From: Tubiluchus corallicola
Taxonomy: Eukaryota; Animalia; Priapulida
Direction of reading: 5' to 3'
Assembly (NCBI GenBank): GCA_030141605.1
Contig: JAQGDQ010000027.1
Span: 806,001 to 870,000, forward strand
Length of the DNA: 64,000 nucleotides
Shown here piece after piece: positions 20,401 through 63,969 of this stretch. The position numbers were made by a program, and so were the translations under genes. How positions within the stretch are numbered: position 1 is the stretch's first letter; the number at the start of each line of letters is the position of its first letter. The notes under the pieces were generated by a model. It did no database searches. It worked only from the letters and a program-made list of their open reading frames with translations, and was not told the origin of the DNA.

Positions 20401-20465
20401 TTTTCCCTGTAAGTGAAAAATGTGAAAAATAACAACAGAAAAAAAGAAAATTTCAAGCAGTTCAT
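8837..20465 (-). CDS. AOAH: Acyloxyacyl hydrolase (saposin-B plus GDSL/SGNH lipase), 18 exons, 574 aa
   Basis: Exons: 20465-20357, 20167-20011, 18646-18541, 17372-17313, 16592-16522, 16075-16015, 15658-15588, 15491-15443, 14991-14848, 14752-14683, 14190-14077, 13654-13618, 12765-12691, 12555-12480, 11177-10962, 10014-9912, 9808-9732, 8965-8837 (1725 nt, in frame). Contains a signal peptide, saposin cysteines, LRGTAWRGRDC, catalytic LGDSASAHF, GNDVCN, EPADGFHPNQ and C-terminal FGDQGGY*. Confidence 0.96.
11457..12171 (-). repeat. Copy B (inverted) of the same repeat, in AOAH intron 14, flanked by (TG)n on both sides
   Basis: Directly alignable to 5260-6025; both give the same spurious ORF MIMNKFFMLIFSLLSSLFR. 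Confidence 0.92.
16682..17239. mobile_element. Kolobok-like MITE (TTAA TSD, AGGAAAG TIR), copy 1
   Basis: TTAA|AGGAAAGGACAAGTC...CTTTCCC|TTAA; homologous along its length to 37476-37957. Confidence 0.7.
19189..19823 (+). mobile_element. hAT deletion derivative / MITE
   Basis: TIRs CAGTGGCGTCGCTA / TAGCGGTGCCCCTG, degenerate 8-bp TSD gtgttcga/gtgcttga, GGGTGACACC subterminal repeats, and an internal ERSFSKLKQIKHDLRFTMGQSR hAT dimerization-domain remnant. Confidence 0.85.
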
Positions 20466-23600: not shown

Positions 23601-24726
23601 GTCAAGAACCGTTGCATTGTTTCACGTATGCAAAATTTTTATGAACGACTAGGTTTGGTACTTCAACTAATAGAACCAATAATGAAGCAGTTCCTGCAAA
23701 ACCTCAAAGAACATTTGAAGATGAAAGCAGCGTATTACAAGAAAGAGAAATGAAAGAGCAGAACGAAGATAAGCCATTTTTCCAGGTATTTCATCATTCT
23801 TTACTACTAGTTAACAGTTCATCGACACAAGTGTAATGAAAGTCAAATTTTGTAATCTAAATTAGTCACTGTCTTGCATGAAAAATGTCTGGCACTATGT
23901 GAATGTCTTTACAGCTGTTAACCAACAAATTTCAATAAATACTGCATGTATAATCTACTATCAATTAACTAAGTTCTTGATTTTTCTAATTAAGCGTCCT
24001 TATCCATCTGTTAATTCTCCAATGTTGAAAACTTTTTAATTATACTTCACTGATTAGTTGAATGTATAATAGACTTGGTGGTGGATTTTATATGCTTAAA
24101 ACATTTTTTGCATGTTTAGATATTCCTTATTTCTTTAAACAAATAATGTAAAAAGTGACTGTGAAAACTGCATTGGCTCTATTCGTGGTAGACTGACTGA
24201 CATGAAATGTCAAACTTTAACCAAAGTTCTTGAATTTAATCGGAAATAACAAGGCAGTATGGGTTTGACGGTTTTGCCTTACAAATGAATTTGCATTTTT
24301 TCAGTCTGAAGAAAACATTGATCTTGTTTTAGATGGTAGAGGGAGCCAGGTAAGTGTAGCTGTATGCCTCTTGGATGTTGCTGATTACAATACACGAGTC
24401 GGCTCAGTTGCTTTGGAATTTCATTATGCATTACACAATACAGTCAATGCTTCAATGTGCTACTGATTCACTGTAACTGAAAATATTGTTCACTTGTTCA
24501 TTTTTTTTTAAATACTAAGTATCGTTAATTGTGTTTGCTTAGCAAATAGAGCAGTTTCTAGTGGCGTACATTCACTCTAATAATAACATTAAATAAAATA
24601 TTATCATATTCTTATTATTGTGCATATAAGCTAGTAGTTTAGTTCAACATGATAATGAATTTTGTTTGTTTTTTATTCGTTTTCTATAACTTGAAGGTTC
24701 TGGTTACCAGTCATATGTGAGGATTC

Positions 24727-24761
<35 letters not shown>

Positions 24762-36700: not shown

Positions 36701-39700
36701 AAACCTTGTGTGACGATGTGACGCTACTTTGTAATGATTTAATAGGCATGCAGCTCTGCACAGCTTAAGAGGTGGATACGAAATTTAAAAGCATCTACAT
36801 CATTTTACCTGCCTATAAATTTTATGTACTTGTCTTAAATGGTCTATTTGTGTTTAATAATTATGTTTTTCAAAGAAACTTCTTTAGATATGTTTTTGGT
36901 GAAAGAGGCCAATTTGTTACCGAATTTTGCTAGTTTTACATTATTTCTTTGTTTTGCTGCTAGGTCTAATATTTGAAATTGGATTTTCCTAGTACATAAC
37001 ATTTTTTTTCACTTTTATAAATTTTTTTGGGTAACGTGATTTTATGAAATTCGAGAAAACCATGTTTATAAAGTTCTTGATAAACCGACTAACCATACAG
37101 AAGAGGGTATTTGCTTAACCGATGTGTTTAGCGGCAAACATGCTGGGATAATGTATAATAATAACGTTAACCAGTTTCTTTCTTTTCCGGCATGTTTAAG
37201 GTTCCATTCTTATCGCCGCTTGATGGTGTACTGCACGTCGACATCACCTGTCATACTGTAGCCACTTCAACACATAAGAAGGGATTCCTGGTAAATCTTC
37301 GTTTGCTTTGAAGAATTAACACACTTTTGAATGCCAAAAAGTTGTCATACATTATTAAACGCTGACTGGCATAATAGCTAAATGATTTCTGGAATCTTGA
37401 TATTGTTGTGGATGAGAATCAGAAAGCTGCGTTCAGAGTTCAGAGCCAAGGCTATTCTTTTATTTTTCTTGCAGTTTAAAGGAAAGAACAAGTCACTCAG
37501 TATATTGGGTTTATTTTTCTGTTATCACTTAAACTTTGAAAAATATAACAAAGAAATTTGCAAAAAACTATCTGCCATTTATTTGAAAATCATGACGTAA
37601 CTGGCAGATTTCGTGACTTTTCGTAAGCGCGCCCTGCAAAAACTAATTCAAACTTCTGCAGGTTTACCTAAGGTTCACTAAAATATATTACAAAATTAGC
37701 TATCTAATATTTTTGTAAAAACTTGTTATACTTTTGACGACAGTTGACAGTGTGTTACTTTTCTTCAAGACAACTGACGTCATTGGAAGAATGGGCATTG
37801 AAAATGAGAGTGCCCAAGGATAAAGTGATCGCAACTTTAAAGTGATTTAACCAGTTACACAAGGCGCTTATTGCAGTTTTATTAGTAAATCCTTCTAACA
37901 GTTGTCATGAACATTCAAATAAGTTTAACTTCCTAGAAGACTTGGCCTTTCCTTTAACATTGAATTTAGCCGAGACTGCAATTTTAAACTTATTCTAATT
38001 GCTTTGTAAATGTGCTTCTTAACTGAAGCTTGCTGACAATGCCAAAAATGTGACAATTAAAGAACGCATTGATTGTTTTTTACTCTTTAGTTAAATCTGT
38101 GTATTTCAGACCATGTTTGACGATGTCAGTGGTTTTGGCGCTTGGCACCGCAGATGGTGTGTGCTCGGAGAGAGCTTCATGTCTTACTGGAAGTATCCAG
38201 ATGATGAGAAACGAAAGGTGTGTCTTTTATCTTACGTTAAAACTAGGTGTCTATAAATAATGCCTCCGAGAAAAAAGTCTTAATAAGCAGAAAACAATTG
38301 GCAACAGAAATCTATGATTTTGAAAGTTTTACTTGCCCAGCTAATTTAAAAGTCATTCTATAATACCTGTAAAAACTGGCTGATTACTTTACAGACTTTT
38401 ATTTTTCACTCATTGAAAAATGGTGAAACTGCAATACAAACAAGAAAAAAGAACATCAAACAAAAGTAAAGCAACAGTAAATTGGAAATAAATAAGTCAC
38501 AAGCATTAGCAAATTAACAACAAGCATACTGAAGCAGAAAATGACTCAAAATTAAACCACAACATACAGATTGACAGAAAAAAAGCAAAATTTACTAATA
38601 AATAAGCTTTCTAACAGATCACAAATCAGCAGGCACCTGCACGCGCATGCACGCCTACACAAAAACTCGCATATGCTTTCACTTTAAACAGTTGCAAAAA
38701 ATCAATACTTATGCATGATTGTGACAAAAAAAACGCCATCAGAAACTATTAAACAAACAAATGAACTTACAAACAACTGAAATCAAATGAGACATACTAC
38801 AGGCATCAGTATAACTAAAAACAGGATTTTGCACTATTCAAAGGCTGTTATCTTCTCATACTAGAGCACCCAAGCATGTTAAATAATCGCACCTACAGGT
38901 AATACAAAATAACAACACTCCAATCAACACACCTGGCTTCACTATACCCACACTAGCCTGGGAGATAACAATACCTGTTAATAGCCCACCTTCCTCCCTC
39001 GTACAGCCAACAATTTTGTAGGATATGATTGGATCAGTGACCTGAAGACTGGGATTAATGTTTTTGTTGAGTTGAACTGAATGGTATGGAAATTCACTGG
39101 ACTTTAACCACTCAAAATACATACACATAAGCTATCCTGAAAAACACTAAGATTATAAAAAATACCAGTATTCTTTGGATAAGCTTGTGAGATGTCTGCA
39201 ATATATCTATTGGAGGATTTTGAGTCCTTTGAGTCACTATTCCAATATACCCCTCAAGATCCCTGACTGTGCGAGCTGTGTCAGGGGTCTACATCAAATT
39301 TTGAGGGGATGGTAAATTTGGCATTGTTTGAACAATACTCTTATGTATTAAATTATTCTGTACTATTATTTATTGTTTTTGTAATCCCCCAACTCAAGGT
39401 TATGTACCACCTTGTACAACATTGCTACTGATTTAAAATCTTTCATATTTTATTGAAAGATAAATTTTTGAGGCACTAGTGTTATGAGCTAGAATCTTCA
39501 TGTTAAAAATCAGCTATCCATGCAATTAAATGCACAAACGTGAAAAATTACAAATTTTATAAACAGTACTTACTTCACACCAGCGAACTTGTAGAATTTT
39601 TGGTTTATATATATGCTTTTCAAGCATCTTCCCCCAGAATACCCCATTATCAGAGACTGGTCAGATTAATTGGCACTCAAATACTGTTTTTACAGCCACC

Positions 39701-40753
39701 TATTGGCAGCATAGACTTGACATTATGTACTACTGAAAAAGCTAAACAAGTAGCCAGGGATATCTGTGCCAGACAGCATACATTCATGATTGAAACAGTG
39801 AGGCCTAGAGCTGCAGGTGATAGAAACACGCTCATTTCCGAAAGCCATGATGATATGACCGAAATTAGGTAAGAAAATGGTCTCTTTTTATCCATGATCG
39901 ATTTTCTGTTGCAGTATCATCCCACATATAGCAAGCTGTACTTATTTAAACCACAATGAAACACTGTTCATAAATGAAACTTTAAATAATTGCATTGAAA
40001 TTTTATGTCACTTGTTGTCTTGCTATTTACAGAGCTTATATTAACAGCCATTTTTAGAGTCAGTCATTTGAAATAAATTTAGATATCATTGTGTAATGTT
40101 TGGAAAAATAACCTGAGCACTCATAGTGCACTGTTTGCTAACCAAGCAAATTTAAATTACTTTGTATTGTCAATAAGATCTTACTTTATATTCGTAATAA
40201 GATTAATAATGTGTTTTTTGTTGAGTGGTGCACACTGGAATGACGATGAATTTTACCAGGTGCCACAAATATTTTGCATTATTAAGAATTTTCTTTTCTA
40301 ATTACATATAGTCTTTTAAGCAGGTAAGCATAATGCAAAGTAATATAACTTTGTGTGGGAAGTTTTCTGGGAGTTACTTTAACATATCATTTTCCTCCCC
40401 TTTAATGAGGTTCATGATTATCAATTTTAAGCCGACAACAATCCAACCTAAACTTCTTTAATCTAAGCATGAATAGCTGCAACAAGTACTTCATTTGCTG
40501 TGCATTTGTTCCAGCAGCACTGAGACAACTCTTGCATTTTTTCTCAATATTTTCCTTTAGTTGCAAAATAGCTATTGCTAACTGCTTGTATATCTGCTTC
40601 TGGTGAACAATTCCTTTAATTGATTAATATACTTCTAGGTATTTACTATCAGCTGATTCTAAGGAAGAGCGTATCGAGTGGTGTGATCAATTCAACGAAA
40701 CACTAATTAACTTGCGCATGTGGAACCCGGACGTTGCCAGAGTTACGAAATAG
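20654..40753 (+). CDS. ANLN: Anillin (N-terminal motif, long disordered region, RBD/C2 anillin-homology domain, PH), 24 exons, about 1415 aa
   Basis: Exons: 20654-20689, 21139-21256, 22243-22344, 22948-23272, 23653-23785, 24305-24349, 25632-25853, 27188-27350, 28052-29142, 29583-29841, 30202-30315, 30723-30818, 30946-31091, 31432-31662, 32632-32767, 33408-33578, 34691-34863, 35582-35623, 36210-36255, 36530-36642, 37201-37290, 38110-38217, 39696-39868, 40639-40753 (4248 nt, in frame). Motifs: [87 protein letters not shown]. Middle exons are less certain. Confidence 0.95.
26126..26692. repeat. Minisatellite, 50-bp unit, about 11 copies, in an anillin intron
   Basis: Unit TGTGTAGCAGAATGTCGGATGATACAGCAGTTAGCTGTGCAGCAGTGTGC recurs at 26131, 26181, ... 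26631. Confidence 0.95.
30461..30616 (+). repeat. About 150-bp intronic direct repeat, copy 1 (copy 2 at 31791-31941)
   Basis: Shared gactgaatggc.accatcg.aatggcctatctgtgtgtaacatgt...aataactcattcaccaagtttacattttt. Confidence 0.85.
31791..31941 (+). repeat. About 150-bp intronic direct repeat, copy 2
   Basis: Aligns to 30461-30616. Confidence 0.85.
32896..33047. repeat. Polypyrimidine (CT-rich) tract
   Basis: About 150 nt that are almost exclusively C/T on the + strand. Confidence 0.9.
35650..35900 (+). mobile_element. Diverged copy of the solo-LTR-like repeat at 4565-4912
   Basis: Colinear similarity blocks (ctgacctggaatacc, ggtcactacagctttgacttctgaca, tggctcctt, aataa). Confidence 0.5.
37476..37957. 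mobile_element. Kolobok-like MITE, copy 2
   Basis: TTAA|AGGAAAGAACAAGTC...GACTTGGCCTTTCCT|TTAA; homologous to 16682-17239. Confidence 0.75.
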
Positions 40754-45700: not shown

Positions 45701-48700
45701 ACAAATTGCTCAGGCAATTAGATGGAAACAGAAGTATTTTTATGACAGCCAATGGCAGTTAAGCTTAAAATTATAACTTGATATTTTCAAAACTCATGTA
45801 TCAGTTTGCAGCCAAGTAATATTTCTAACAATTCTTCATACAATGGTACACGTCCAGACTTGTCTTTATGAGAAAAAAATAGCTGAAAGATGATATTTGT
45901 ACGCTGGAGCACAGCATTTCATTTTGAAAGATTACACTTCATAGTAGTTATGTGCCAGTCTTGCCACAAGCACACCCACCTATATTAAGTAGGTAAGCCC
46001 TTGAGTGCTGGATTTTGACTTGCAATGTGCTGAATAAAAATAAGCCAAAACTGCTTAATGTGAATCCTACTGAGCCAACCACCTCTGCAAATAACTGAAC
46101 ATATTTGCATATTCATACCAGAATTAGGAATCTATCGAAAAATAGAAAAATAACTTTAATAAATACACGCTTATATGGCAATTAAAGTTAAAATATACCT
46201 AGTGCCATCATCTTTTTGAAGTCCATTGAAATTTCCGCACAACCCGCACATCTTTCCTTTATAATATCCCTCCACAACTGCATCTAAGTAAACTCTTCCG
46301 TCCCAGTATAGCTTAACTCCAGGATCCATGTATACCACAAACAAAGCACCTTCGCGAAATATTCTCAATCCACCCCCGTTGTAAGGAAGTGGCACTGCCC
46401 ATCCATTTACTAGAACCAGAGAATTCTCCTTTAACAACACAGTGTGATTCGAATAAAATATTCGTATGTTCATTTCTGTAAAGGCAGGCACTGCTTGTAC
46501 CTTCTGTTTCTTCCTTCCCCTCTCTGACCTCCTGAGAACTGCTGAGTCTTTAAAAAATGATCGAAATATATTCTTCTGCGATCCAAACTCAAGCAAAACT
46601 TGAAATCCAGCATAGTTTTCACACGTTTCTGTAAACACTGTAGCACATTTACTGTGTGGCAATGTAGCAAGATGACCATCATAACTTTTGTACTTAAACA
46701 TTCCAAACGTTGAACAATGACCGCTGTTTGGAATACATACATTGCAGCATTCACCAGGTATTTTACCTAATGTTTGACCCTGAAACAAAATTTTAGAAAT
46801 AGCACATAAATAGCTGTCAGTTTCTAAAATTGCACATTCAAATCTCAGATCAGTACTTAGCACACTTGACCAGAAAATGCTTAAAGTAGTCAGTTGCATT
46901 TGGTTATAAGTACTTAACTGGTAATGACTGAAAACTTTTTCTAGTAAAGTCATAATTGCCAAATGTTTGAATACTTCTCATTGTTCTGCATAAGTTTTTT
47001 TGCAGATGCCTGCTTACTTGTCCACTGCATTCCTCTCACAGAACATGTTGCAAAACCTGGTACTAATAATTAAAAGTAAAACATAGCCAAACGGAGCAGC
47101 AACAGCAGCAACAAAAACAACAACAACAACATCAACATCAACTTGTTGATAATAAATGTTAAACACATTTTTATCAATCAACAGTTGTAGGATTGCTAAA
47201 TGCTAAAATAACTCGACAAACTGTTTAATTTTTATTTATTACTTGTGTAATGTGTAGGCTATTGTTTGTGTCATTAGCAATCAAAAAAGTAAAACATTTC
47301 AGTACGTTAGGTTTAAAAGTTGCTTGAGCATTTTCTTGTTCACATCTGACATTTCACAAGTTTATATGCAAAGAACGTAATCAGCCAACTACAGATTAAA
47401 AACCTTGCATTTTCAACTGTTTGGGCTGCTAACAGTGCCTGTATCAAGTCAACTACTGCTCACTGCACTAACTGACAGGTATCTACAGCACACTCTACAG
47501 CTGCAGCTTGAATTACTTCACATTGTTTTTATCAGCATATGGTCAGGTTACCGCTAATTTGTTTAAAATAACTGACTCGTGTTATCATGATATGGGTTTA
47601 CTGTGGCAGATAAAAGATATCACAATGCATGGATGAATTGTTACAGGCCTATTGTACACCTTGATCTTACTCCAGTATTTCTAAGATACTTTACCTCCGG
47701 GCAACTTAATATAGTTGGACAATCGATTGGTTTACACGCTATCTCCTCATTCATGCACTGACAGAAGGAGCATTGATTTCCTGGTGGAACAAACTGTTCT
47801 CCGTGCTCATATATTAGACCCTGGTAAATGCAGCTACCATCTACAAAACATAAACTTTGAGAACGTCTCTCAGAAAATACTTATTTGGCAAAACAGAACC
47901 AAGTTCATAGCATTTACAGGAGAAAGGTGTATGGAAGGTTAATAAATAAGCGAAACAGTGTATTTAATATAGTCATTATAACCAAACATTGGTAAACATG
48001 ATACACAGGTAGTCATCGACTTACGACCACAATCGGTACCATCGGATTGGACGTAAGCTGAATAGGATGCAAGTCGGACCCGTATATTCAAGTGGTGTGC
48101 TCCTTACATGGAAGATATTGTGTGTATACTAAGTATGGCAGTGATAAAGTGAGACATTATCACTTTTATGTAATTAATTAATTAATTTCGTGTCGTAAAA
48201 TCGAACAGTCGTAAGTTGCATAGATCGTAAAGAGGATGGTCTGTAATTATCTTATAGATAACAACCAATGAAATGACAGCAAAGAATTGAAAAACGCCTT
48301 TATCCAACATAAACAGATTCAAAGAAGGAAAACTTGTCAACAATTTCTTCGGTGACAGAATAAGTACGGTATGTCTTGTAATTACAAAGTCCAAATTCAA
48401 AACCTACTCAGTGGTAAAATTTTTCACTACCTATTTACATGCTGTGATAATAGAAATGGTGCACACAAGCTTATAGAAAATTACTCATTTTTGAGTAACG
48501 TAAGTTTCTCACATCCTAATATTCCAAACCTACTGATGCCTGATTAAACACACATTTTGGACGAGTGTCAACAAGCAATAAGAAATATCCTATAGTAATC
48601 AAAATTCAAAAAATGCCAATTTTTGCCTGAATCTTAGTAAAAGTCACTCTCAACCTAAATGTGTTTCCTAAAACACTCACAAATTTGATTTTCAATTAAC

Positions 48701-51700
48701 TGACCAAATGCATTCACCTTTGGCAAGCTCTTGTTTAATAACTGAGAGTTTTTCGAATCTATGTTTGAAATTTTGCATCATTTTATTCTGCCACCATGCT
48801 GACTCTAAACAGGTGTAAAATCGCTGCATCACTATATATAAGAGACTGTAGTACACAGTTATAAATTAAAATTGGTTTAGTAGTCTTATGACGACAAGTC
48901 TGATGCTGCCAAAATTCTGATGAATTGTTGACTTGAGATTTGATAATCAAATTTACAATTGGTTCTTGTCATAATTGCTATTTTTCATTTTAAAAATAAC
49001 TTTTATTAATAATAATTTGTAATAATAAATTAACGAGGAACTTTTGGAACACCCGTATTACTCAACAGTGAATACATACTCAAGCACTCGGAACAACATT
49101 CCTCATGCCAGAGGACCTGCTTCTCCTGAGGACAGTCAAGAGGCGGACATTGAACAGTTTCGCATGTCAATTCACCACCCTTAAAAAACAAAGCAAGCAC
49201 TTCTAGCATTTGTTATAACATGCCCATAACTAAGCAGAATCACCTTAACAGTTTTCTAGAAATAATGTTGCTAGCCAGTGTTTAGTGCACACCTTTATAT
49301 AATTATAGCATTTTTATCTTCAATTATTATAGTGAATGATGATACAAAACTAAGTGCCTAATTGCAACATCACATGCAAAAGAATTCTCAGAATTTATTT
49401 TGGATATACATATTTATTTAAGGATACAGAATTGTCAATAAAGCAGCAAGTTGCTTAACTGAAGATTCTCCTGCATAAGTCTGTTAATAATTATCTGCTT
49501 ATGTTTAAATCACAGAGAAATCATTAGATCCACAAAAGAGGATGTTACATATTTCACTGATGAAGCATAATATATTAAAATTGATGTAAGGTTGAGGTAC
49601 AGAACCTACTTTAGTCAGAAAAGATAAGCCTATACAATTATACACAGAGTATATCAGGAAAAAATGCACACTTACCGAACACAGACATGTTGTACAAGCT
49701 CCTAGCTGAAACTGTGTACCATCACTGTAAATGAAACCTTCGATTGTGCAACTGGAGGCGGCCTCAGCAGAATTAACACAAACAGGGCAGCAAGTACCAT
49801 TCGGTAGGATACGGTTTTCAGCACTACAACTAAGTGCAGGACAATGCACTAAACCACAGTGAAGATACCCGACCTGTGAGGAGTGAAAAACACAGTGCTT
49901 TAAATTACAAGTACCCGTACAGGCTTTTTAATGCAGTCTGGTGCAATGCAAGTTGGAGTATGTGCACACATTGGTGGAGCTACTATTATTGTTGGCTGGT
50001 TGTGGGAAACATAAACCTAGTTGTTACCAAGGATAATTCCCCAAGTTAAAAAGCTGGGTTGGCAGCAGATATCATAGGGTCTATACACACAGAATGCCAA
50101 GACAGAACAATAAAAAGATAGAAAAAAATTCTAGCAATAGGAAAAAAATCTGGCAATCACTCATCTATATACTGACCAAGCCCATCATTGCCAAACAGAT
50201 GCCAAACAGTCATTCTCTTAACTGCAAATTAAAGAAAAAAATGCTAAAACAAGAATAATAAAATTAAACCTTGCATGTGCACTGTGTGCAGTCATCGTCT
50301 GCATGACGAAACGTGGCTTCTTCAAGGTACGTGATGTCCTCATGGCTACAACCTTTACACGATGCACAACAAGTTTGATTTCCACCATCTAGAGGATCTC
50401 TACATTCTGAAGGACAAGACACTGACTTGCACTGTATGGACGTGTCCTACAAATGGAAACAAATTAAAATAACTTATTATACTACAGTAGAGTCTATCAA
50501 TTCAACAGCATGACTGGATAAACCAATAAATTAAATTTGATGCCCACATCTTTAACATTGCAATAATTACTACAGTCAGCTTGGTACTAGTCGGCTATAG
50601 CAGCGATACCCTTAGTTAATTTTTGTAAGCCGTAAATAAAACATGCTTGCAAATAGAGTCGAAGTTGAACAACATTTCCTAGGAAACTACTTACTTTTGA
50701 GAGTTCAATAAACTGGGGGTTCCTACTGCTGAGGTTTAAGCAATCAATCCAGTAAGCAAACAAATACATGAATTAATTACATAACTCATTAATCTAATTT
50801 GTTGCTTAGGAACAAAAATATGCCAAAAAACAAAGAAAAACAGGAACTTCATATCATATTATTATATTTGAAATGTTTCAATAATGGAACATACTTATTC
50901 TTCAAAATGTTCAACTCCACACAGATATACACAAATCACGAATTTAATCAGACAAAATTATCAACACACCCAAGTGGGGAAGAGCTTTATTCCATATTAA
51001 AATAATTTATAATGACGTCATAAAAGTGTACTTGTAAATGCAGTGATTAGTAATCACTGATTACTCAAAACACACAAAACTGAAAAAAAGCAAGTACATT
51101 GCAAACACAGAGCGTGCAATCATCCTCCATTGTCCAAATATCTCCATGTTCATAATGAACTCCATCAAACTCGCACTTTTGACATTGGGGGCAGCACTGT
51201 CCATCTACTGTTTCTGTGACTGAACATGTGACTGCAGGACAGGGCATCATGTCACAAAGTACTGAGCCTTGCTGAAAATTGACAAATAAATTTAAAGTAA
51301 AAAAAAGTTCAAGAAATTTCAACACATAATCACGAACAGCATTCTAACAGGTGGCACAAAAAGAGGTGCTGAACTTTTAATCACGATATTATAAGAAAAT
51401 GACTGAATTACATGAAAATTACCACAATGATGTAACAGTCGTTTATGTACAAACAACAAAAATTTTAGGTCATTCCCTTAGATTTTTCCAAAGATACAGG
51501 AGTTTTTTAAACAAGTCAAAAAAATAAATGCCGGAAAACTTTGTATCAAGAATACTAAAATTTACAGTAAGTGTTCTGTGAGTCTACCATTTTTACTGCA
51601 AACTGACAAAGGCATTTCTTCCAACAGCTGACACAGTTTCTCACTTGTTTAAGGGGTATTTAGTTCCAACACTCAACAATTTTTGCCTTTAATTCCTTTA

Positions 51701-54700
51701 CATCAAACTGCTCTGTGCAGCCACTGTACATTTTCTCTTTATGGGAATTCCAGATAGCATTTAGTCCAAAGGATTCACTCCCATTTCTTCCTTGGTAATA
51801 AATCTCTATCAATGCTTCATCTTTTGTGGCGAACACCATGCAAAGGAACTAGTTGATTGTCAATTTCTTCATTATTTTGCTGCCATTCTACTGAGCTTTT
51901 TATACGGCTGTTTTCAATTATGATTACCTAACAATGTACCGGCATTTAAATTTTTAACATGCAAAAGTTTTTAGGTCATAACTTAAATATCCTGCTGCAA
52001 AATTTCAGCTTTGCAGGGCACTTGCTTCTAATATTATTGTAGTCGAAACCTCGTCACATTTTTTCTGGACCATCTGGTATAAAAAACATGACATCACTGT
52101 CTTTCATAAACTTATGAAATAAGAAGAAATATTTGTACACCACTCTGAACACAGAAAGAAGATGGGTATGATAACAAGTGATAACATCTTTGTTGAATTG
52201 TGCACTTAGTTAAATTTTGACAAGAACGATGGATTTGTAATGATAATAGCTGTAGCAATGTATTTTGCGACAATAACTTATGAAGACAAAAGTAAACGAT
52301 GGACATAAATTCTCTAAATAAATACAAAGTAAGTCCATTATTTACTGAATGAATGAAAGTTAACACATTTATTACACGTCTTCACCGAATGCATTGCAAA
52401 CTAATCGAAAGTTCACTTTCCTAAAACAGAAACAAAACATTCGTTCATTCCTTCATTCATTCATTCACACAACCTCTCTTACCTGACATGTGCAGATATG
52501 GCAGGGATCTGCGTCATTTGGAATAAACGTCGCTCCTTCTTTATGTACCTTCCCATTGAATTCACAGACAGAACAATCCATACAGCACTGACCAGAAACA
52601 GCTAGGCCATGGGTACAAACTGCACCACAGGAACGTGCAGTGCAATTTACCGTGCTGTTCTGAAATTAAAAAACGAATGAAACTTACAAATTACAGATGT
52701 CTGCGCACTACTAATAAGTATGAAACTCCTCAGCCAATTTTGCTATTTTCAAAGTAAACATATCCATCATGCACAAGATATAAATAATAAAACATTATTA
52801 CAATGTCAGGTTTACCATTAAATATTTTTTCCTTTAAGAAATATGTGATCGATCAGCAATTTGGTCAACCGAAAAATTGACTATACAATTTACATGTATA
52901 GTATATTGGGGTAATGTCGGCCATATTTAGGTTTTTTCAATGATATGCATTAATGCTTTATATAATATATATAGATTATATATTCTAAAAAATGCCAGTC
53001 TAGGTCACGTGACCTAATACGTGTACAAAAATATAAAAACCAGATGGCCGAGTTTAATAAACTATACACTAAATGAGAAAAAAATAATTAGGCGAATACG
53101 ATTTGCATCATAAGGCATCCACCTGTTAATGAAGTAAGTCACTGCCACACCATTATTAATAATTCATATTTCTATGTTTGACTTACAATACGCAAAGTAT
53201 GATTGCCAAACTATTGGTAAACATAATAAGACGTGTAACATAATAAACATGTTTGCAAATGTTTCGTGCAGTTTATAATGTTGCGCATAGTTTTAAGTTT
53301 GATACGATTTTTTTCTGTTTGATGACAAGTCTTTATTAAAGATATTTAACTAATAATTTAAAATCAAAATCACATAGAATTGTTACTATGTTAATCTACA
53401 GCAGCTCTATACTATACATTTACCTGACAAGTGCACTCTTGACATTCACTATCAGCTAATGAGAAGTTTTCACCATCCTTGTATATCTCAGCACCTATTA
53501 CACAATCACCAGGACATGCAACTGATTTGCACCTTACCTTAGTCACCTGTAAAAACATACAAACTTTTACCAACTCTGTCAGCTACATAAACTTTTAATA
53601 AGTTCAGTGAACATTCTTACATTATTATACTAAATTCCAAACAGGAGATATTTATGCAGAAACTAATATCATTAAATCTTGTACGGAAGAAAAGTACCCG
53701 GGCCACATTTTAACAACAGATAAAACAGACAATATGGATATTGGCCGCCAGCATCGTTTGTTCTACATTCAATCAAACAAATTAATTCGATATTTTTCTA
53801 ACTGCAGTACAGTTAATTTTGTTCAAAGCATATTGCTTTAACTTTTATTGTGCCGCATTATGGAATAACTATTACGACTACAGCTTAAAGAATTTAAAAG
53901 TTGCTTATAATAAAGGGATCAGAATTTTGTTTAATCTACTTTATGACTGCTCGATTAGACAAATGTGTATAGAACTAAATTTACCATATTTTGATTTTAT
54001 TACTAAAAGATCTATTTATTCACTAAAAATTAGAGCTACTGACACCTACAATGAATTGATAAATAATATATTTAACAGTGACTGTTTATTTATATCTAGG
54101 TTGTATAAGCATTGGAATAAAAGCCTATATACTGTAGCCCAATAAAGCAAGGTTGTAAATATCGTAAATACTTAATTAACTGCATTTAATTGTGAGAAAC
54201 TACTAACTGATAATTGTATATTGATTTATATGTATAATATTTGTTTGTTAACTATAATTTGTATTGTAATATGGACTTTGTTCTGAAATAAAAATATTCA
54301 ATCAATCAATCAATCAATCATTAAATTATTATTCATAAATTAAAACAGGATGATCCAAAAGAACAGTGCACTAAGCTTACCAATATACTACAAATAATAT
54401 TATTTTAACATCATTATGGTAACATGAGGAACAAGTCAAGGTCATTTGATCATACTTGTCATCTTTTTAGGGCATTGTTTCTTTTGGAATACCCCATAAT
54501 ATCAGAATTAAAAAGCAAAGAAAATAAAGTAAAATTTGCCACACCTAACCTGATAATCAACAAAATTTAAAATACCTAAACCTAAGCTTAATTAAAGTAG
54601 GTTTGTAAATGATTTATCTGTAAGTATTTTACTAAACTCAAAACATCAAAAAATGAATACTTTTTATTTAAGATACAATTATATAAGAAAAAATTAATTA

Positions 54701-57700
54701 ATTATTATTTATTTAAAAAGACGACTATAAATATAGTACTGTTTTGAATTACAGAATAAGTGTGAGGCCAGAAACAAACCAGAAAAAACACACTAATAGA
54801 AACATAACATTGATTAAGCACAAAAGTGCAATTCCTTTGCTTATCTAATTTATTTAGATTTTTGCTAAATATATTGTGAACTACTAACATAAACTGCAAG
54901 TACTTTAAATAAAGCAAGAATCCACTTACTAAACATTTGCATTCTTGGCAGAGATCCTGAGTTGAATCCTGCAAGTTAATACTTTCACCATGTTCAATAA
55001 CCCTGTCATTATATATACACTGCATTCCTAACAAAAAAACAATTTCATTAAAAATGGCCAAAAAAGGCAGGCCAAACCATTCTTTTTCTAGAGAAAAATT
55101 ATACAAATATAAATGTATCAGATAACAAGCACCATTAACTATGCCAGTATGCATTACATGCAACACATTATGCAAGTAATAAATAAAACATATGCAGTTT
55201 AACGAAATACGCATTGAATTGTTGGTTTAAAAAACACTAATTTTATTGTACACAATATACCTGTTATAGTCTATAAATAATATGAGTATGCGTAAAATCG
55301 TTTTACATAACTCTAAAGGCACATTCAGATTGGAGTATTTTCTCACAAAGAAATTTCGAATGAATTCACACTAGAGAGTAAAATCTGCTACAAGTTGCTT
55401 TCCGACAGCAAGTATAAACAAATGTCGCAGGAGATCTATCTCTGCAGCAGGTAGAAAAAGATACGAGTTCTCAAGATGAAAAGAGTTTGTCTTCATTTGC
55501 ATAAAAAGTAACAAGGCCTGCTGACAGTAAATTTGTAGAGCAGTTCACACTAGCAAGTTTGCTATCAGACAGAAGTCTCCAGACAAGAACCTCTCCAGTG
55601 TGAACACAGCTTTAATGATAACAGTCATTCGAGTTCTTACCACACAAGACATGGCTGTTGTTTCACTTAGTAATTCCACAAATCCTTAAAAGTGAAATGT
55701 AAAACTCCTACAAATAAGAGTTAGGAGTGATACATTAAAAGCAATTTTACTCACCTTCATACAAATCATCGTGGCTAAAGATATTTGTACAGTCAGCTCC
55801 ATCGCTCTGTAGTGGAAGATTATCGCAATCGGGCAAAGCAATTTGTTTGCGCAATTCAGGCGAATGATGTACCTTGCCATACACAGAACCGCAAGTGTCT
55901 TTCTGCAGTTTCTCACAGTCTTCACGGCAAAGATGCTTTTGGTACACAACATCCACCTCTCCAGAGCAAACCGGAAATGTGTAATAACACAACGCCTGGT
56001 GGAAGTAATTTGAGCACTTGGCATCCATCACGTTACTCAAGTGAGAGATAATCTTTCGCAAATTAGACGCCATCTGGTTTTCAATTTGGACCAATGAATC
56101 GTCGGAAGAATAAACAGCTTCTGTGGACAGGTAACGGTTGCAGATCTCGCCTCTATATTGCACACAGAGTTCGTTATCGCTGTATGGGTTGTTATTAGCA
56201 GGTTTGCTTAGTTCACCTTTAGTGTCCGGGTTAGGTTGAATTTCACCTGTACCTTTATTTTCCATGTGAAAGCCCTTTGAAGGAATCCCGTCAGCTAGAA
56301 AATACAAAAAAATACATACCGGCTTTTTCATTTAAATTCCTTCCTAGAGAAAGAAATTTCAATAAACGTCAACAATGGCAGGAGGAAAATAGATTTATAA
56401 ATTAGTTTAGTAAAAGATACCAAAGCAATACTAAATCAGAGTCTACAAAATTTTGCATCTCCACCAAAACTCGCACCAAACACTGTCATTTTTCCAGGCA
56501 ACTATGCTAACCATTACACTACTTAGGAACTTTGACTTTTCAGAGTCGGATATTTACAATGTAAGCCACTATCAGATAGGAATCACAGTCTACACTGTAT
56601 CAAGACATAACTACGAAATCAATCACATACAGTTTTTAAACACACAAAATAATACAAAAAATTAAAAAGAAACTCAATCAGTTTTCTGAATCAAAATGTC
56701 AAAAAATGCCAAACTCGATTCTCCTTATTCTCAGCGAACTTACAACAGGTAGTCGTCGACTTATAGCCTATGCAACTTACAACTGTTCAACTTTACGACT
56801 CAAGCACAACTTAATTAATTAAACAAAACTAACAATAACTCGTATAACAAATTAACTTTCTCTATCTGTTTCGTCTGTTTAATAAATTCATCGGAAGGCG
56901 CTGCCATACTTAATGCATGTACACATACAACATTTTACTTGTAGGTGCACATCATTTTAATATACTGCATCGAGTTTGCCTTGTGACCAATTGACCAGAA
57001 CTGCAAGCCCTAATTATGTCGATAACTACCTGTATTAGGATGCTGATGCTTTTCATTGAGGTAATTGTTAAACTGCTTTAGATGGACGACACATCAATAT
57101 TAAACGGCAAAAATATGTCACCCAGACATCATCGGTAGAAAGCTGGATTGAATTCAGCTGGGCAATTATACAACCAAACTAGTTCGAAATAAGACAGCAA
57201 AGCACTAGCTAGAGTTGAGTCCAAAAAAAGTAATTAATTTACAAAGTACGATGTACAAAATACCATTAAAGAAAAACACCATATCCTCCATATTTTCTTA
57301 TAATTTCATCAACTCACTCATATTCAAAACTAAAATGGAAGGCACAGGTTCAAAAATACTGTTAACACAAATTTCCAAACTTTCCTTCAAAGGTTAAAAA
57401 GCCAGTGAACAAAGATTACACATCGAAATGAGGTCTAAAAAATTTTCCCTCCATGGGATTCAAATCCAGAACCTTCTGCTTTCTTAGCAGCTATGCTAAC
57501 CATTATAACGATCACTTTTTCCAAAAAATTACCATATGGTACAAAAACTGCCTTTTAACTGACACACGTATGTAATTAAACACAGCAAGACAACCATAAA
57601 ACATAATAAATCACCTGTGTCTTTGTGCACTAGGACATGAGCACTAGTCTCTACATGGTCCCTGCCATTATTAGCAATGCAGGTGTAGAGGCCAGTATCG

Positions 57701-60700
57701 GACTCCCGAGCCTTTTTAATCCTTAACATGCTTGTTTTCTTTGTGTTTTTTACAGAAATCCGCTTAGCTTGTACATCAACAACAACGCCATCTTTTGTCC
57801 ATGAATAATTGGGATGCGGCACACCCACAATGCTGCACTTCAGCCTAAACTTATTTCCAACCAACACGGCAACGTTACGAAGATGCTCTCTTACGGTCAA
57901 AATACCTACAACGATAGAACAAGTAATGTCATAGTTGAATATTAAGGCGCGTTCTGACTACGGAGCTTTGTGTCGCGAGTTTTCTCTTTGACAGCAACCT
58001 CACAAGTGTGAAATGCTTTGGGAATTACTGTTGGAAATGTATAACAAATTTTCCGACAATTGCTGCAAATTGATTTGCATTCTAGCGTGAAAACCTCAGC
58101 ATGTTACTCTCTACACTCCTCACAATGAATAGAGAGTACTTACTGTCGGAGAGTCAACTTGCTGAAAGTTTTGCTCTAGTATGAACATGCTTGAGAGTCA
58201 CTTGGGGAGTTAACTTGGCAAGAAAACTCGCTAGTCTGTATGTGCCATCAGAGACATTAAAATAAGCTCAGCAAAAGGCCACGGCTTGAAAGGTAACATA
58301 CTACATCACCTGTCCAAGCAAAGGCGTGGATCTGCATAAATTCATCACTCCAACTCTGCAAAGGGTCACAGCTGAACAATTAATATACACAGCATATAGT
58401 AATTGCTACATGAAAGAGTTTATACAGCTGTATTTTTATTTATCTATTTCCACATTTGGGCTGCCAATAATTTCAATAATTTTCCTCGAATAGTTAAATA
58501 ATAAATTAGTCACAATTTGTATCCCCCTAGCATGGAGCAATATTTCCAATTTATAATTTCCACAATTAACAAAAAGAAAGATTGTCGCGATTCTAAACCT
58601 AGTTTAAAACTGATGGGTACTAAACAAAAAAGGATGCTTACAAAGAAATTTGTGGTGCCCGTTACAGATTAACAAACTTACCAAAACATATTGGGCAGCA
58701 CTGACCAGGTGGTATGTAGTTACTGACGCATGGAACATCACATTCATTTCGTTTACAGTGAATACTGCCAGACTGGAACAAACCAGAGACTCCATGTATT
58801 TCTCAATGCATCAGTTACAATCTGAAAACTGAGCAAAAGTGGCAGAAAACTAAGAAGTGTGAACCATACAAAAAAAGAAAAGGTAACAGTAACCTATGAT
58901 TATCAGGCCATGTTCAAAAATGCTTTAACAGTGGTTCTTAACCAAAAAACATTTTAAAATAGTGAAAGAAACATCAGAAACTTCACCATATACATAAAAC
59001 ATTATACTTGATAACTGAAAAGCAGATAAAATGACGTATGTTACAGAAATACTAGGGCAGTGACGCAACAAACCCCTAATTAGTAAAAATCAAGTTACAT
59101 CAGTATTTGGCAAAATAGTACCAAATTAAGGCAAATCGAGCAAAAAATGTACCAAACCATTACCAAGTAGAATCGCGGTGGACAGAGACTATATTTCTAT
59201 ATTTTGTTACTCTATTACTGCTGAATTGGACCAAAAATATTCTGTTGTTTGCGAAACAGGCTCAGTCACTAAAGAAACCCATTGCTCATCAGGACACTTT
59301 AAATTTGTCATACAAAAAAGTTTACAGTGTTACTATGAGCACATGTATAGTACCTTGGGCATGTGACATCTCAACTATGGATAGCTCTTGTCCAAGCAAC
59401 AAAAAGCTCAAATAATGCTTGGCTGCATTAATAAGGTAAATTTATGAAGTTTTATTGCTAACTGTCTAGAAAATTTCCAACTTAAGCTCTCAAATCACCA
59501 ATGCATCTTGTGAAGAGAATAACAGCAAGAAGTTTGTCTTACTAAGCGACAATAACAATGTTATTATATCATTGTGAATTTTTCAGTGTATGATATCTTC
59601 AACTTACTGCTGAACTAAATCAAATCGAATGCCGTGGAAAATACAAAGTGAATGGTTTGTTTCATCACTACTAAAGAATGATAACTACACTAGAAACACA
59701 TCCAGAGACAACTAGATAAAAAAAGAATCAAAACTTCCTCAGTACTAAACCAGAAATACTTACCAAACATCTACATTCAGAACACTTGTCTGATGGATCT
59801 TCAAAGATCTCTCCATCAGAGTAAATATGGGCCTCAGAAAAACAAGACACACAGGAAGAACAACATTCTCCATCCAGAAAAACAGGATGAGAGCAAGACT
59901 GAGTGCAAGCTATCCTGGAACAGGATATTGTACCATCATCCTACAATTTAGAAAAATATGTGTAATCAAAATGAATTATTCCAGCAATGCAAACTACTAA
60001 ATATTTCGATTACTGTAATAAATCTACATTGCAGAATACCAGAAACTGCTAAATTCTGGTACTTTTCTTTGTTTTAGATGCCAGAAACCAGTTTTGTTTG
60101 AAATCAGTTTGCAATAAATTCCATTTTGATTCCATTCCTTATCTAAATATGTCATCTAAAAGGTCTGTTTTCAAAATTGTGTACAAAGTTGCAATTATTT
60201 AACAATTAGCAGAAAATTACGATAAGTGACAAATTTTAAACGCTCACACTGAGATAAAGAAAAAGCTGTGCATGAAACATTGCTGCTAAGCTAGAAGAAA
60301 GCAAAAATTGCTTACTGAGCATGTACATGTAGAACAAATAGGTGAAGACTCATTCCACTCACTACCGACATTATGAGCAATCCCACTGCTGTCAAAACAC
60401 TGGTGAATCACTACGATGTTCTCAGCTTCAGTCGTACCAATAGTTACAGCATACGATGCCCGTTCTTCTGTTGTTTCATGCCTGACATAACCATCAGATG
60501 TTGTTTCTATGTCCTCTATAATTACAGTTGTTGGTGACGTCACTATAGTCTCATATGATGCCTGTACATGATCAGTATGATCACTATATTCAACAGAAAA
60601 GTATGTGTCGCTTGTAGAATATTCTTCTAATTCCTTAAAAGAAGTTTTCGTTGTCGCTGTAAATTCCTCTGTATAATTTATAGTCACCATATCATTCATG

Positions 60701-63700
60701 TCACTATTCTCTTCTTCTGATTTATTGGTAACTACGTTTATTTCGGGATGTTGTACCTTTTCTACAGTTGGTTGCTCTTCGTCCGGTTTATGTTTTCCCT
60801 TAGTTTTTGTTTTGCATATAGGGCAGCAATAACCCGTGGGCGAGTACCGCTTTTTCTTCTTGCAGTGCAAGGTAGGGCAAGTAGCATTTCGGCATCTCAC
60901 ATCAGCGTTCTGCAAAGAATGGAATAGCATAATTGAAAAGTAAAACACCCTGCCATTAACTTTATGTTAATTTCAACACAACTGTTAATTTTAAAGGCTA
61001 ATTAACCATAGGCGAGTTGTATACGATGTTTACAGCAAAAATTAAAGATTCTGAAGAAATAACCACTGAAAACAAAGTCCAAACACTTACCAGACAAGCA
61101 CAAATTTGACAAGGATCGTCTAAAGGAGTAAACAGTTCTCCATGTAAATACCAGCCACTATGGTGTTCACAATCTGTTATCAAACATAATGAGCAGAATG
61201 AGTCCAAGAAATAGAATTCAGCTTTTCAGGCTCATAAAGTGCAATATATTTTTAAGCAAAATACAACATACCCTATAATATAAAGCAATAAAGCAAACAT
61301 AATGTTATATTTTATAAAATATATGTTGTACTATGCAGCAAAAAGCTCATAGCAAAAATTTCAACTTAAAAAGGCTAAAGAAAAATTAACACTAACTTAT
61401 CATTCACTACCTATCACTTTTCTTAGCCCGATTTTATAAAACCAATGCCATTCAGTAAATGATTTTAACAAAAAGACACTAAAAACAAAGTTGACAAAAA
61501 ACTAAAACCAGCCTTTATGACAAACCAAAGCAACCACATCATCAAAATAGCTTTGGTGAGAGAAACTATTAAACAATACGTAAGAAAAGCACTTGATCTC
61601 AAACAATAACAATATTACTGGATACTAAACAGGTGATAGTATAGATATGCTGGAAATGGTATTCAGTAAAATCAAATATATTTGTTCCTAATAGGTTGCA
61701 AAACTGTAACAGTTTCAGTCTTATTACAAATAAAATCTATGTCTGATGATTTTATTTTCTGAAACTGAAATAGAAATAAAAAACCCTGTTATTATGGCCA
61801 AAGAACTACATAATTTGAAAAGTAAACAGTAGGCGCCGCTTAATAGACTCACGGTTAATAGACTCAATCGCTTAATTGACTCAAAAACGCCTGGAACGGG
61901 CCGCTTCTATTCAAATACACATAAAAACTATCAGTAATTGACTCAATATTTTTCCTTCACTTAAAATAAGATATTTGTAAGTGCCAAAAGAGCCTTTCCT
62001 ACTTTTATGTCATTTTTACTCCCCTTTTGTGCACTATGTATGCACAAACAATCATGTTAAGTACAATTTTGTTTATAAGCAGGTACGTTTATCATGCATT
62101 AATATATATGCTAACATAGTGGTTTTGCTTCGAATCTGTTACCCATTCGCCCACTGTTACCCAAAGAATTTCTGGAAGCTAAACATTTAATCACTTGCCT
62201 ACAGTTTCTTTTTGATGCTCTGGCTGCAAATTACGCTTTCAAGCTTAATGAGTTAACGGTAAAGATGCAAGTACAGTAGTCAGCGGGTATTCCTCGTGAC
62301 TTACATAAACATTGTACAGCAAATACAGACAACGTAAGTGAGCAGATGATTCAGAACTGTGTTTAGTCACACACAACAACAGATTTTCAACGTTTTTATA
62401 ATTACAACAACTTTGTGCGCCAACTTCTTCGCGAGAAAATGAAGCAGCCGACCTTGAAGGATTTTTGTAATTTTTGCAAATAAACAGACTTATATGATTT
62501 CGAAAAGCATACTTTTAATGTATTGCTAATTCACTTATATAAATTAACATTTTAAGATATTTTTTCTAATTTCTAACTGCACAAAAGAATTTAGGCATTA
62601 CTTCTTTTCTAAAATTCATTAAAAAGCCTTTGCAGTGCATAGCAAGGTGATGACTCATACTTCATTACCAGTAATACTAGACCCATCGGTTAATAGGTTC
62701 AGTCGGTTAATTGGGTCAAAACATGTCGGTCCCAAAGTGAGTCTATTAAGCGCCTACTGCAACACCTATTAAATCTGCCTTGCAAATTGGCATACGAGAA
62801 AATCAGACGTAATGCAAAATACCAATGCATATAAACCCTTTTCTTTCCAATGCGATAAAGCAGACTTACCAGCTTCAGCCAACAGTAGCGCCATGTCATA
62901 TTCACTCACATCAATGGATGACCTTAATCCAACTCGAACTCTCCATTCTTTCCTTTCATTAGCAACATCAGATTGGTACTTTTCATCTCCTAACCCATCA
63001 ACTTCACCAACATCTTTCACAAGATTATCGACATGCCTAGTAACCACATCAACAACACGGGCAGCTCTGTAGTTCATTTTCTTCTTACGGCTGTCATCCG
63101 GTTTACCGATACCATCGACTATTGGAGTTATATCCGGAATGTCTAAGAATTTTTTACCATCAGACAGTTTGTTATCATCGGGTAGGTTGCTTTTGTTATC
63201 ACCTAATTTATTGTCTTCAGTAGTGCCTATCTTTAGCAAAGAGTTTTGGTTTTCTTCATATATCAGTCTTGTAGAAGTGGATGTGCGAGCAATTTCTTCT
63301 GTAGAAATGCTGTCTGTAGCTTGCTCAGTACTATTGTCACTAAAACTTTTACCACTACTGTCATTCGTAATACTTTCTTGAAAGTCACTGTGTACAGGAT
63401 GGGCATGTTTAATGCCATCTGGATAAGCAGGTATCAAGTAAATGCCAGAAGCTAAAACTTCGACATGTTCAAGTATGGAGTCATTGTGCTGAGTGACGGG
63501 AAGTTCACTGCTATTCTTTATTTCCATTGAAAACACATCGTACAATATCTTTAAAATAAATTCTTTAAATTCTTGATCCTTGATGCTAAAAATATAATCG
63601 GCAGAATTTGATTTGTTGATGCTGGAGTTGAAATCGCTAGAAAAAATGCAATTAAGAGGAACAGAGGTGTTCTGATTTAGGGCATCGTTGGAACTTTGAG

Positions 63701-63969
63701 CGACACACTTTACGGCAGATTCAGTGGTTGCATTTATTTCACTGACAGCTACATCGTCCTTCTTAATTTCACCACGAATTTCTTTCTCTTCACTGAGTGG
63801 TAACGTTGTACAAGTCTCCAGATCACTAAAGGCAGAATTTCCCAGTGCATTATGGGAAACCATAAACATCACATACTTTTCATCATAGAGTAAATCATCG
63901 AGAAGATACGATCTAGCATTCCCTTGAATTTTTGTAGTCTTGAAGCGCTTCTGAGACGCACGTCTAAAC
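42728..63969 (-). CDS. BMPER/Crossveinless-2/Kielin-chordin-like protein with extra FN3, mucin-like, Ig and Frizzled-CRD modules (5'-incomplete; 19 exons, >1700 aa in window)
   Basis: Exons: 63969-62870, 61173-61091, 60909-60316, 59940-59764, 58772-58682, 57905-57615, 56294-55755, 55027-54930, 53546-53424, 52659-52483, 51271-51098, 50446-50270, 49873-49676, 49179-49080, 47840-47695, 46779-46199, 45274-45148, 44122-43942, 42915-42728. All GT-AG and phase-compatible. About 10 VWC repeats (CxxCxC...CCxxC), VWD (GKMCGLCGNFNG), C8, and TIL (YTECGPECRRTC...CIPGCFC). Confidence 0.85.
48006..48235. mobile_element. Tigger/pogo-like MITE fragment
   Basis: Starts CAGGTAGTCATCGACTTACGACC, the same family as 56746-57032. 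Confidence 0.5.
51348..52078 (-). mobile_element. Tc1/mariner deletion derivative
   Basis: Imperfect TIRs caggtggcacaaaaa / tttttctggaccatctg and a decayed NPLDY-AIW transposase motif on the minus strand at about 51750-51785. Confidence 0.5.
53620..54320 (+). mobile_element. 5'-truncated LINE 3' end
   Basis: EKYPGHILT.DKTDNMDIGRQ...NKLIRYFSNCS, then a frameshift to LFKAYC..FY..LW...KVAYNKGIRIL; ends in AATAAA plus a (TCAA)n tail. Confidence 0.8.
55312..55615. mobile_element. MITE with imperfect TIRs (Harbinger/Kolobok-like); related copy at about 57943-58247
   Basis: taaaggcacattcagattggag versus ctccagtgtgaacacagctttaa. Confidence 0.4.
55755..56294 (-). CDS. Frizzled-type cysteine-rich domain exon (ROR/MuSK subtype) within the BMPER/KCP-like gene
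   Basis: CVQYRGEICNRYL...IENQM...KCSNYFHQALCYYTFPVC...LCREDCEKLQKDTC...LPDCDNLP...DC; 10 Cys; 540 nt, phase 1-1. Confidence 0.9.
56746..57032. mobile_element. Tigger/pogo-like MITE
   Basis: TIRs CAGGTAGTCGTCGAC / GTCGATAACTACCTG, followed by TA. Confidence 0.65.
57446..57516 (-). mobile_element. tRNA(Gly)-derived SINE head or tRNA pseudogene
   Basis: Minus strand reads ATAATGGTTAGCATAGCTGCTAAGAAAGCAG...GGATTTGAATCCC, resembling tRNA-Gly(TCC) D and anticodon arms plus a B-box, with a damaged anticodon loop. Partial second copy at about 56495-56520. Confidence 0.5.
57615..57905 (-). CDS. I-set Ig domain exon (ROR-like) within the BMPER/KCP-like gene
   Basis: LKCSIVGVPHPNYSWTKDG...LRIKKARESDTGLYTCIANNG; 291 nt, phase 1-1. 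Confidence 0.9.
61827..62759 (+). mobile_element. pogo/Tigger-type deletion derivative
   Basis: TIRs CAGTAGGCG(CCG)CTTAATAGACTCAC / GTGAGTCTATTAAGCGCCTACTG, ttaatagactc subterminal repeats, and an internal KMKQPTLKDF PIP-box-like transposase tail. Confidence 0.8.

Follow-up and report, generated by a model that had tools for sequence, protein, structure and literature searches.

Can one secreted protein carry parts of both the BMP and the Wnt pathway, which pattern two body axes and normally do so through separate extracellular regulators? The question is raised by a 64,000-nucleotide stretch of Tubiluchus corallicola DNA (here called the window), in which an Ig exon and an exon for a Frizzled-type cysteine-rich domain (CRD), together called the cassette, are situated within a gene of the Kielin type. 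The explanation that we prefer, to which as a whole we assign a probability of about 0.4, is that the cassette is likely spliced in, giving one predicted secreted Kielin-type protein with a probably exon-shuffled ROR module.

The host gene was modelled on the minus strand, on which all the features described here lie. The model has 19 exons, is open for 1714 amino acids within the 64-kb window and has AG/GT borders at all 18 introns. Its 5' end is beyond base 64000, with any signal peptide outside the window. The exon nearest to the window end, past which the gene continues, is acidic and of low complexity (62870..63969), with an open frame and no Pfam match; it is joined to the following exon in contig 15 of a spliced sequencing run, X2. 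Four exons (61173-61091, 60909-60316, 59940-59764 and 58772-58682) form an open model in which three VWC modules are accompanied by a spacer rich in Thr and Glu; Pfam finds VWC on three of them, the first being outside the scan. The last of the four precedes the cassette and ends in phase 1 at 58682. Beyond the cassette, two exons (55027-54930 and 53546-53424) hold a truncated VWC, straight after the CRD, and the first part of the VWC that follows it. The first of these begins at 55027 in phase 1, and the truncated module has 6 cysteines compared with 10, lacking the CC..C half. The remaining VWC modules occupy six exons (47695..52659), as found by alignment and by Pfam on four of the five scanned, and the alignment places six complete modules after the truncated one. 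The window holds nine complete VWC modules and one truncated module.

The C-terminus is formed by a VWD exon (46199..46779; Pfam VWD E 9.6e-21), a linker exon with an open model (45274-45148), a C8 exon (44122-43942; Pfam C8 8e-11) and a TIL exon with the stop codon (42915-42728; Pfam TIL 2.3e-13). The Pfam scan of the host exons agrees with the VWC(n)-VWD-C8-TIL layout proposed in the first-pass annotation. The cassette had been placed there between a third and a fourth VWC; VWC modules are indeed found on both sides, but the numbers are window-relative because the gene runs past the window edge at 64000, and the following module is the truncated one. A search of the window for tRNA genes found none.

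A long VWC array with a single VWD-C8-TIL end is the layout of Kielin/KCP, from which the host differs by the Ig-CRD insert; the comparison with KCP is one of layout. BMPER/Crossveinless-2 also has a VWC array before a C-terminal VWD, C8 and TIL, with five VWC modules and, where the VWD begins, a GDPH motif for self-cleavage (PMC6456722). In contrast, the host has at least ten VWC modules (one truncated), low-complexity spacers and the Ig-CRD insert, and the place of GDPH in its VWD exon is taken by FGMFKY. Because GDPH is absent from the whole 1714-residue model, the protein would probably remain uncleaved.

The cassette consists of an Ig I-set exon similar to the ROR Ig (57905-57615, 291 nt; Pfam I-set E 1.4e-19) and an exon for a ROR-type CRD with 10 cysteines (56294-55755, 540 nt; Pfam Fz E 7.8e-14), the latter having a linker of about 40 amino acids in front of the domain. 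Both exons are bounded by AG/GT, run from phase 1 to phase 1 and sit in frame between the VWC exons on the strand of the host. These coordinates, sizes, borders, phases and the cysteine count were re-derived from the sequence and are the same as those claimed earlier. Among AG-started intron stretches of the two exon lengths, 0 of 801 and 0 of 789 were stop-free in phase 1, and the open cassette frames are therefore not the result of chance. The acceptors of the Ig and CRD exons score 11.0 and 10.5, compared with a 99th percentile of 8.9 for 811 intronic AGs. Their donors score 7.3 and 9.0, compared with 95th and 99th percentiles of 5.7 and 7.7 for 1001 intronic GTs. A candidate micro-exon (56343-56320, a 24-nt AG..GT stretch) was rejected, as it would leave a 25-nt intron. 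The cassette borders were also checked for repeats, and none was informative. Four ROR protein queries match the Ig and CRD exons only, with no kringle or kinase in the window and likewise no match to a membrane segment after the CRD, in agreement with the first-pass annotation.

Both domains are of the ROR type by sequence, as had been proposed, and the CRD is so also by its predicted fold. The best PDB sequence match of the CRD is the ROR2 CRD (3e-16), although its identity to RORs is at most about one third. The predicted model (pLDDT 90.9) superimposes on ROR2 with a Z score of 18.1 and an rmsd of 2.2, 132 of the 136 residues being aligned. The corresponding Z scores are 14.6-15.5 for MuSK/Nrk and 8-10.6 for the sFRP, Sizzled and Frizzled CRDs (111-116 of 136 residues aligned), which have the Frizzled-type fold in common with the host CRD. 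Cys8 and Cys9 are spaced by 21, the value seen in vertebrate RORs, and a helix is predicted at positions 109-114 of the model, within this ROR-length segment. The Ig exon is 40% identical over 91 amino acids to the Ig preceding the CRD of the ROR-like protein P0033. Among the compared proteins, a pool biased by having been picked for CRD similarity, the best Ig match is an Ig located 20 residues before a ROR CRD (62 bits).

The end of the CRD exon lies 11 codons and one base past Cys10. Single-exon vertebrate ROR fragments diverge from the full-length proteins 12-13 codons past Cys10, with the next cysteine at the spacing of the kringle. The 3' end of the CRD exon coincides with the CRD/kringle intron of ROR, a shared boundary that exon shuffling would be expected to leave and that supports the earlier suggestion of a shuffled ROR module. 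The CRD of P0014, a Logan record, is 47% identical to that of the window and has the same end point. A quick tree without a Frizzled outgroup was calculated from 97 CRDs and 135 columns, its input being 96 CRD stretches that cover at least 105 query positions, taken from the best 150 of 238 matches. In this tree the window CRD, which has a long branch, pairs with P0014 (SH-aLRT 96) away from the main group of RORs, with the deep forks poorly resolved. The host resembles the ectodomain of ROR1/ROR2 (and of Nrk and MuSK) in its Ig followed by a 10-cysteine CRD, in fold, in Cys8-Cys9 spacing and in 3' exon boundary, and differs in having no kringle, membrane segment or kinase and in a long-branched CRD embedded in a VWC protein. 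An origin of the cassette from a ROR gene is very probable.

According to the preferred explanation, a ROR gene would have supplied copies of its Ig and CRD exons, inserted into a phase-1 intron that separated two VWC modules. The kringle, membrane anchor and kinase would have been left behind, with the following VWC taking the place of the kringle. Binding of BMP, chordin or both would fall to the VWC array. In Cv-2, only the first VWC, with its Clip and SD1 segments, binds BMP (PMC2944808), and the first VWC of the host may lie outside the window. The VWD end would keep the protein at the cell surface; in BMPER, the VWD mediates binding to heparan sulphate (PMC6456722).

The earlier proposal that the module binds Wnt is not supported in its simple form. 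According to PMC11219042, the ROR2 CRD lacks a groove that could take up the Wnt lipid, and its binding to WNT5A is weaker than that of Frizzled CRDs; WNT5A signalling nevertheless requires this CRD, which is also the minimal part sufficient for it. The lipid groove of the long-branched window CRD is predicted to be closed by the extra helix shared with ROR2. This predicted closure and the lack of a netrin domain distinguish the host from sFRP, Sizzled and Frizzled. The sFRPs are secreted CRD carriers, and an sFRP-like Wnt trap is not the mode proposed here. The CRD would rather act like that of ROR2, by a weak contact aiding or competing with Wnt-Frizzled complexes. The chance that it still acts on Wnt-Frizzled signalling is somewhat below even, and given the divergence and the long branch its ROR function may be lost. 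A single-chain, uncleavable priapulid protein that would hold BMP/chordin on its VWC modules and present a ROR CRD to Wnt-Frizzled complexes at the cell surface, thereby physically linking the two principal axis-patterning signals, is unlikely. PMC11219042 also describes impaired secretion of ROR2 lacking its kringle; the absence of a kringle from the host protein counts against the preferred explanation.

The best surviving alternative also has the cassette spliced in, but no longer serving Wnt: it would provide an extra contact with the BMP pathway, perhaps by way of the Ig, or else act as a spacer within a scaffold for BMP and chordin. An analogy is provided by Ig3 of MuSK, which lies beside the CRD and binds BMP; MuSK binds BMP2/4/7, and Ig3 is needed for high affinity (PMC10763067). 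The diverged CRD, deprived of its kringle partner and with its groove predicted closed, is consistent with such a role. However, the Ig is closest to that of ROR among those compared (MuSK Ig3 was outside the domain-by-domain comparison), and all 10 cysteines and the ROR fold have been retained. This alternative is only slightly less probable than the preferred explanation.

If the cassette joints are used, one secreted protein would contain parts of two signalling pathways, and the gene would be a clean case of exon shuffling that moved a receptor ectodomain into a secreted modulator of BMP and left the donor intron boundary visible. Such a fusion, occurring naturally in a worm of the Ecdysozoa, would test the abilities of a ROR CRD that has neither membrane anchor nor kringle nor lipid groove. 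Should the CRD be inert, the fusion would be a lineage-specific domain oddity.

A search of sequencing runs gave two, X1 and X2, with no RNA holder on record. Run X2 is spliced, is approximately 90-93% like the window and contains both cassette exons. One contig covers 57687-57852 of the Ig exon (15 of 166 letters differ) and another 55934-56086 of the CRD exon (10 of 153 differ); contigs 12 and 13 account entirely for the X2 depth in the Ig and CRD bins. The X2 joints match five of the 18 introns of the host model, including 60909/61091, 50445/51097, 49178/49675 and 45273/46199. No contig of X1 or X2 crosses 58682^57905, 57615^56294 or 55755^55027. At 85% likeness X2 does not cover the VWC exons on either side of the cassette, and the run is silent both for and against these three joints. 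Splicing of the cassette into the host mRNA is highly probable.

The cassette exons could instead be alternative, being mostly skipped or serving as a 3' end, and the product would then be either a Kielin-type protein without the cassette or a shorter one that terminates behind the CRD. Skipping the Ig exon, the CRD exon or both preserves the reading frame, so that the frame is no proof of inclusion. The CRD frame reaches a stop two codons beyond its donor, AATAAA is present downstream at 55247, and short human ROR1 isoforms occur in its cluster. The presence of both exons in the spliced run and their splice sites, which rank among the strongest of the host gene, make this improbable.

A separate nested gene, a dead ROR copy or a chimeric assembly would account for the missing joint contigs and for the GC3 of the cassette exons, which at 0.44-0.45 exceeds that of all but one of the other 17 exons (0.21-0.48). 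Nevertheless, the VWC array is correctly continued from one side of the cassette to the other, with matched phases and no stop, the 776-nt intron ahead has no obvious start or signal exon among its eight open stretches inspected by eye, and homologous sequence exists in X2 and P0014. Such an origin is very improbable.

The first-pass annotation knew of no protein with this architecture, and the searches agree. Among the best 150 of 238 CRD matches, drawn from 1.84 billion representatives, none has a match to the VWC, VWD, C8 or TIL exons, and the literature searched describes no VWC+Ig+CRD+VWD protein. When proteins of 315-2000 amino acids were searched by words from the CRD exon, 113 candidates emerged, none of which scored; an exact look-up found 0 of 10 window frames in the collection, and a metagenome scan gave 213 pattern matches with none confirmed. 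The Atlas returned only generic Fz and VWD clusters, with a BMPER cluster no higher than rank 15 (score 0.83). The findings point to a real, apparently undescribed Kielin-type protein, probably shaped by exon shuffling and with a predicted function. That the family is already catalogued beyond the reach of these searches is most improbable given the absence of such matches, even though the VWD search had low sensitivity, returning 13 FCGBP/zonadhesin/otogelin-type proteins and neither BMPER nor KCP, and kinase-less proteins with ROR-type CRDs do exist (crinoid P0015 and P0016, with Ig/FN3/3xFz, and skate P0023). The crinoid proteins XP_071952165 and XP_033111178 resemble the host in combining ROR-type CRDs with Ig and no kinase, and differ from it in lacking VWC and VWD and in having three CRDs, six to seven Ig domains and FN3.

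The host gene runs from 63969 to 42728 on the minus strand and was modelled as 19 exons with an open reading of 1714 amino acids, all 18 introns having AG/GT borders. The modules are, in order, a low-complexity stretch, a VWC, a spacer, two VWCs, an Ig domain, a Frizzled-type cysteine-rich domain (CRD), a truncated VWC, six VWCs, VWD, C8, TIL and a stop, so that the VWC(n)-VWD-C8-TIL layout proposed in the first-pass annotation is found in the model. The 5' part extends past the window edge, placing the start and signal peptide outside the window; the protein is probably secreted. Two departures of the host protein from BMPER, one in a VWC and one in the VWD, do not appear in the first-pass annotation. 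The VWC directly after the CRD has six cysteines and lacks its second half, because its exon (53424-53546, minus strand) falls 54 nt short of the 177 nt that its sibling exons measure. Two marks specific to BMPER, the count of five VWCs and the GDPH motif, are lacking. BMPER carries this self-cleavage motif in its VWD (PMC6456722), whereas the host protein has FGMFKY there. The VWD exon (46199-46779, minus strand) contains no GDPH and has a basic insert of about 25 residues, in which R-x-x-R sites might permit cleavage of another kind. Orthology to BMPER or KCP is putative at most.

The Ig exon (57905-57615, 291 nt; Pfam I-set, E 1.4e-19) and the CRD exon (56294-55755, 540 nt; Pfam Fz, E 7.8e-14) are on the minus strand and run from phase 1 to phase 1 between AG/GT borders. 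The VWC exon before them ends at 58682, and the one after them starts at 55027. Coordinates, phases, Pfam matches and the ten cysteines of the CRD agree with the initial claim of two in-frame exons within the VWC array. Among AG-started intron stretches, none of 801 at the Ig exon length and none of 789 at the CRD exon length was free of stops. With matrices trained on the other splice sites of the same gene, the acceptors of the Ig and CRD exons score 11.0 and 10.5, more than the 8.9 that marks the 99th percentile for AGs within introns, and the donors 7.3 and 9.0 (95th and 99th percentiles, 5.7 and 7.7). The intron between them contains a 26-nt stretch in two copies, 85% alike (56491-56516 and 57480-57505), with a tRNA/SINE-like look as judged by eye; ARAGORN found no tRNA there.

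Both domains are ROR-type, as had been proposed. The best PDB sequence match of the CRD is ROR2 (3e-16), followed by fly Nrk and MuSK, with no Frizzled at the E 0.001 threshold. Its predicted fold (pLDDT 90.9) superimposes on ROR2 with Z 18.1 and an rmsd of 2.2 over 132 aligned residues, as against Z of at most 10.6 for Frizzleds. The Ig domain scores best, in a pool biased towards RORs, with the Ig immediately preceding a ROR CRD (40% identity). ROR-type domains, a matching CRD exon end and absence of the kringle and kinase are what would be expected if phase-1 exons had been shuffled out of a ROR gene. The exon ends 11 codons and one base past Cys10; vertebrate ROR single-exon fragments diverge from the full-length proteins 12-13 codons past Cys10, just ahead of the kringle, whose first cysteine position is occupied here by that of the following VWC. 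Neither kringle nor kinase was found in the 64-kb window; the annotation had seen none nearby. A ROR receptor has both, and the host protein is not a ROR. In a quick tree with poor resolution of its deep forks, however, the CRD falls outside the main ROR group and has a long branch, which counts against a tidy shuffling story. It pairs there (support 96) with a Logan record, P0014, of 129 residues, 47% identical and with the same end point, which suggests that the exon is present in a second, fairly distant genome.

The best reading, with a probability of about 0.4, is that the host protein would stay uncleaved and surface-held as a BMP/chordin scaffold, its CRD contacting Wnt-Frizzled complexes weakly, in the manner of ROR. 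The VWD of BMPER binds heparan sulphate and in this way brings the protein to the cell surface (PMC6456722), and in Cv-2 the BMP contacts are limited to Clip-SD1 of VWC1, the chordin site being a composite of VWC1-4 (PMC2944808). The claim that the CRD binds Wnt5 was too strong. The CRD of ROR2 lacks a groove for the Wnt lipid, and its binding of WNT5A is weaker than that of Frizzled CRDs (PMC11219042); the CRD here shares its Cys8-Cys9 spacing of 21 and has a helix predicted in that segment. Ranked just behind is a Wnt-independent role for the cassette, somewhat less probable, as a spacer or an added BMP contact; MuSK Ig3 offers a precedent for the latter (PMC10763067). The BMP/Wnt integrator originally proposed appears doubtful.

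The cassette is very probably spliced into the host mRNA. Sequencing run X2, whose RNA label is only a guess, behaves as spliced, because its contigs join across 5 of the 18 model introns (three exactly, two within a base). Of the differences listed between X2 and the host exons, 19 of 24 are silent and none falls inside the Ig or CRD exon. X2 pieces lie within the Ig exon (166 nt, 15 differences) and the CRD exon (153 nt, 10 differences). No X2 contig crosses 58682^57905, 57615^56294 or 55755^55027, since both pieces stop short of the splice sites and X2 cover of the flanking VWC exons is zero. The reading frame survives skipping of either exon or both. What speaks for inclusion is therefore that the splice sites are strong, the coding is intact, both exons occur in X2 and no obvious start exon was seen. 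That the exons are mostly skipped or terminal is unlikely, and a nested gene or a chimera is more improbable still.

A known family is the least probable explanation. A HMMER search of 1.84 billion representatives gave 238 CRD relatives, and none of the best 150 matched the VWC, VWD, C8 or TIL exons; full-text literature searches, judged by title or abstract start, gave no paper on a VWC, Ig/CRD and VWD architecture, in keeping with the suggestion that it is undescribed. The 30 relatives scanned with Pfam were RORs, ROR fragments, CRD-only pieces and kinase-less Ig/Fz proteins, including two uncharacterised crinoid ones (P0015 and P0016, Antedon and Anneissia; six to seven Ig, FN3 and three ROR-type CRDs) and an uncharacterised skate one (P0023, Rhinoraja; a ROR-type CRD and two Ig). 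ROR-type CRDs have thus been reused outside receptors before, yet without VWCs in the relatives examined. The cassette-bearing gene is a real feature and a new variation on Kielin/BMPER proteins.

The first intron contains a very high-copy repeat (61826-62752; X1 depth in thousands) with loose ends at both borders and no inverted arms of at least 18 nt. Plus-strand frames at 53786-54145, within an intron of the VWC gene, and at 3223-4001 resemble the tail ends of non-LTR retrotransposon proteins; neither has a Pfam match. A multi-exon acyloxyacyl hydrolase (AOAH) gene occupies 8840-20408 on the minus strand (15 tblastn pieces to the AOAH protein P0181); the best named match of one exon, among only three hits, is Priapulus caudatus AOAH (76% identical), which points to a priapulid as the likely source. 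An anillin-like plus-strand gene, with one Anillin_N match at 22893-23273 and an extent of about 22900-40000 guessed from frames, shares a head-to-head arrangement with AOAH and a tail-to-tail one with the VWC gene. On human 7p14, BMPER, ANLN and AOAH lie near one another, and the neighbourhood may, as a lead only, be an old linkage.
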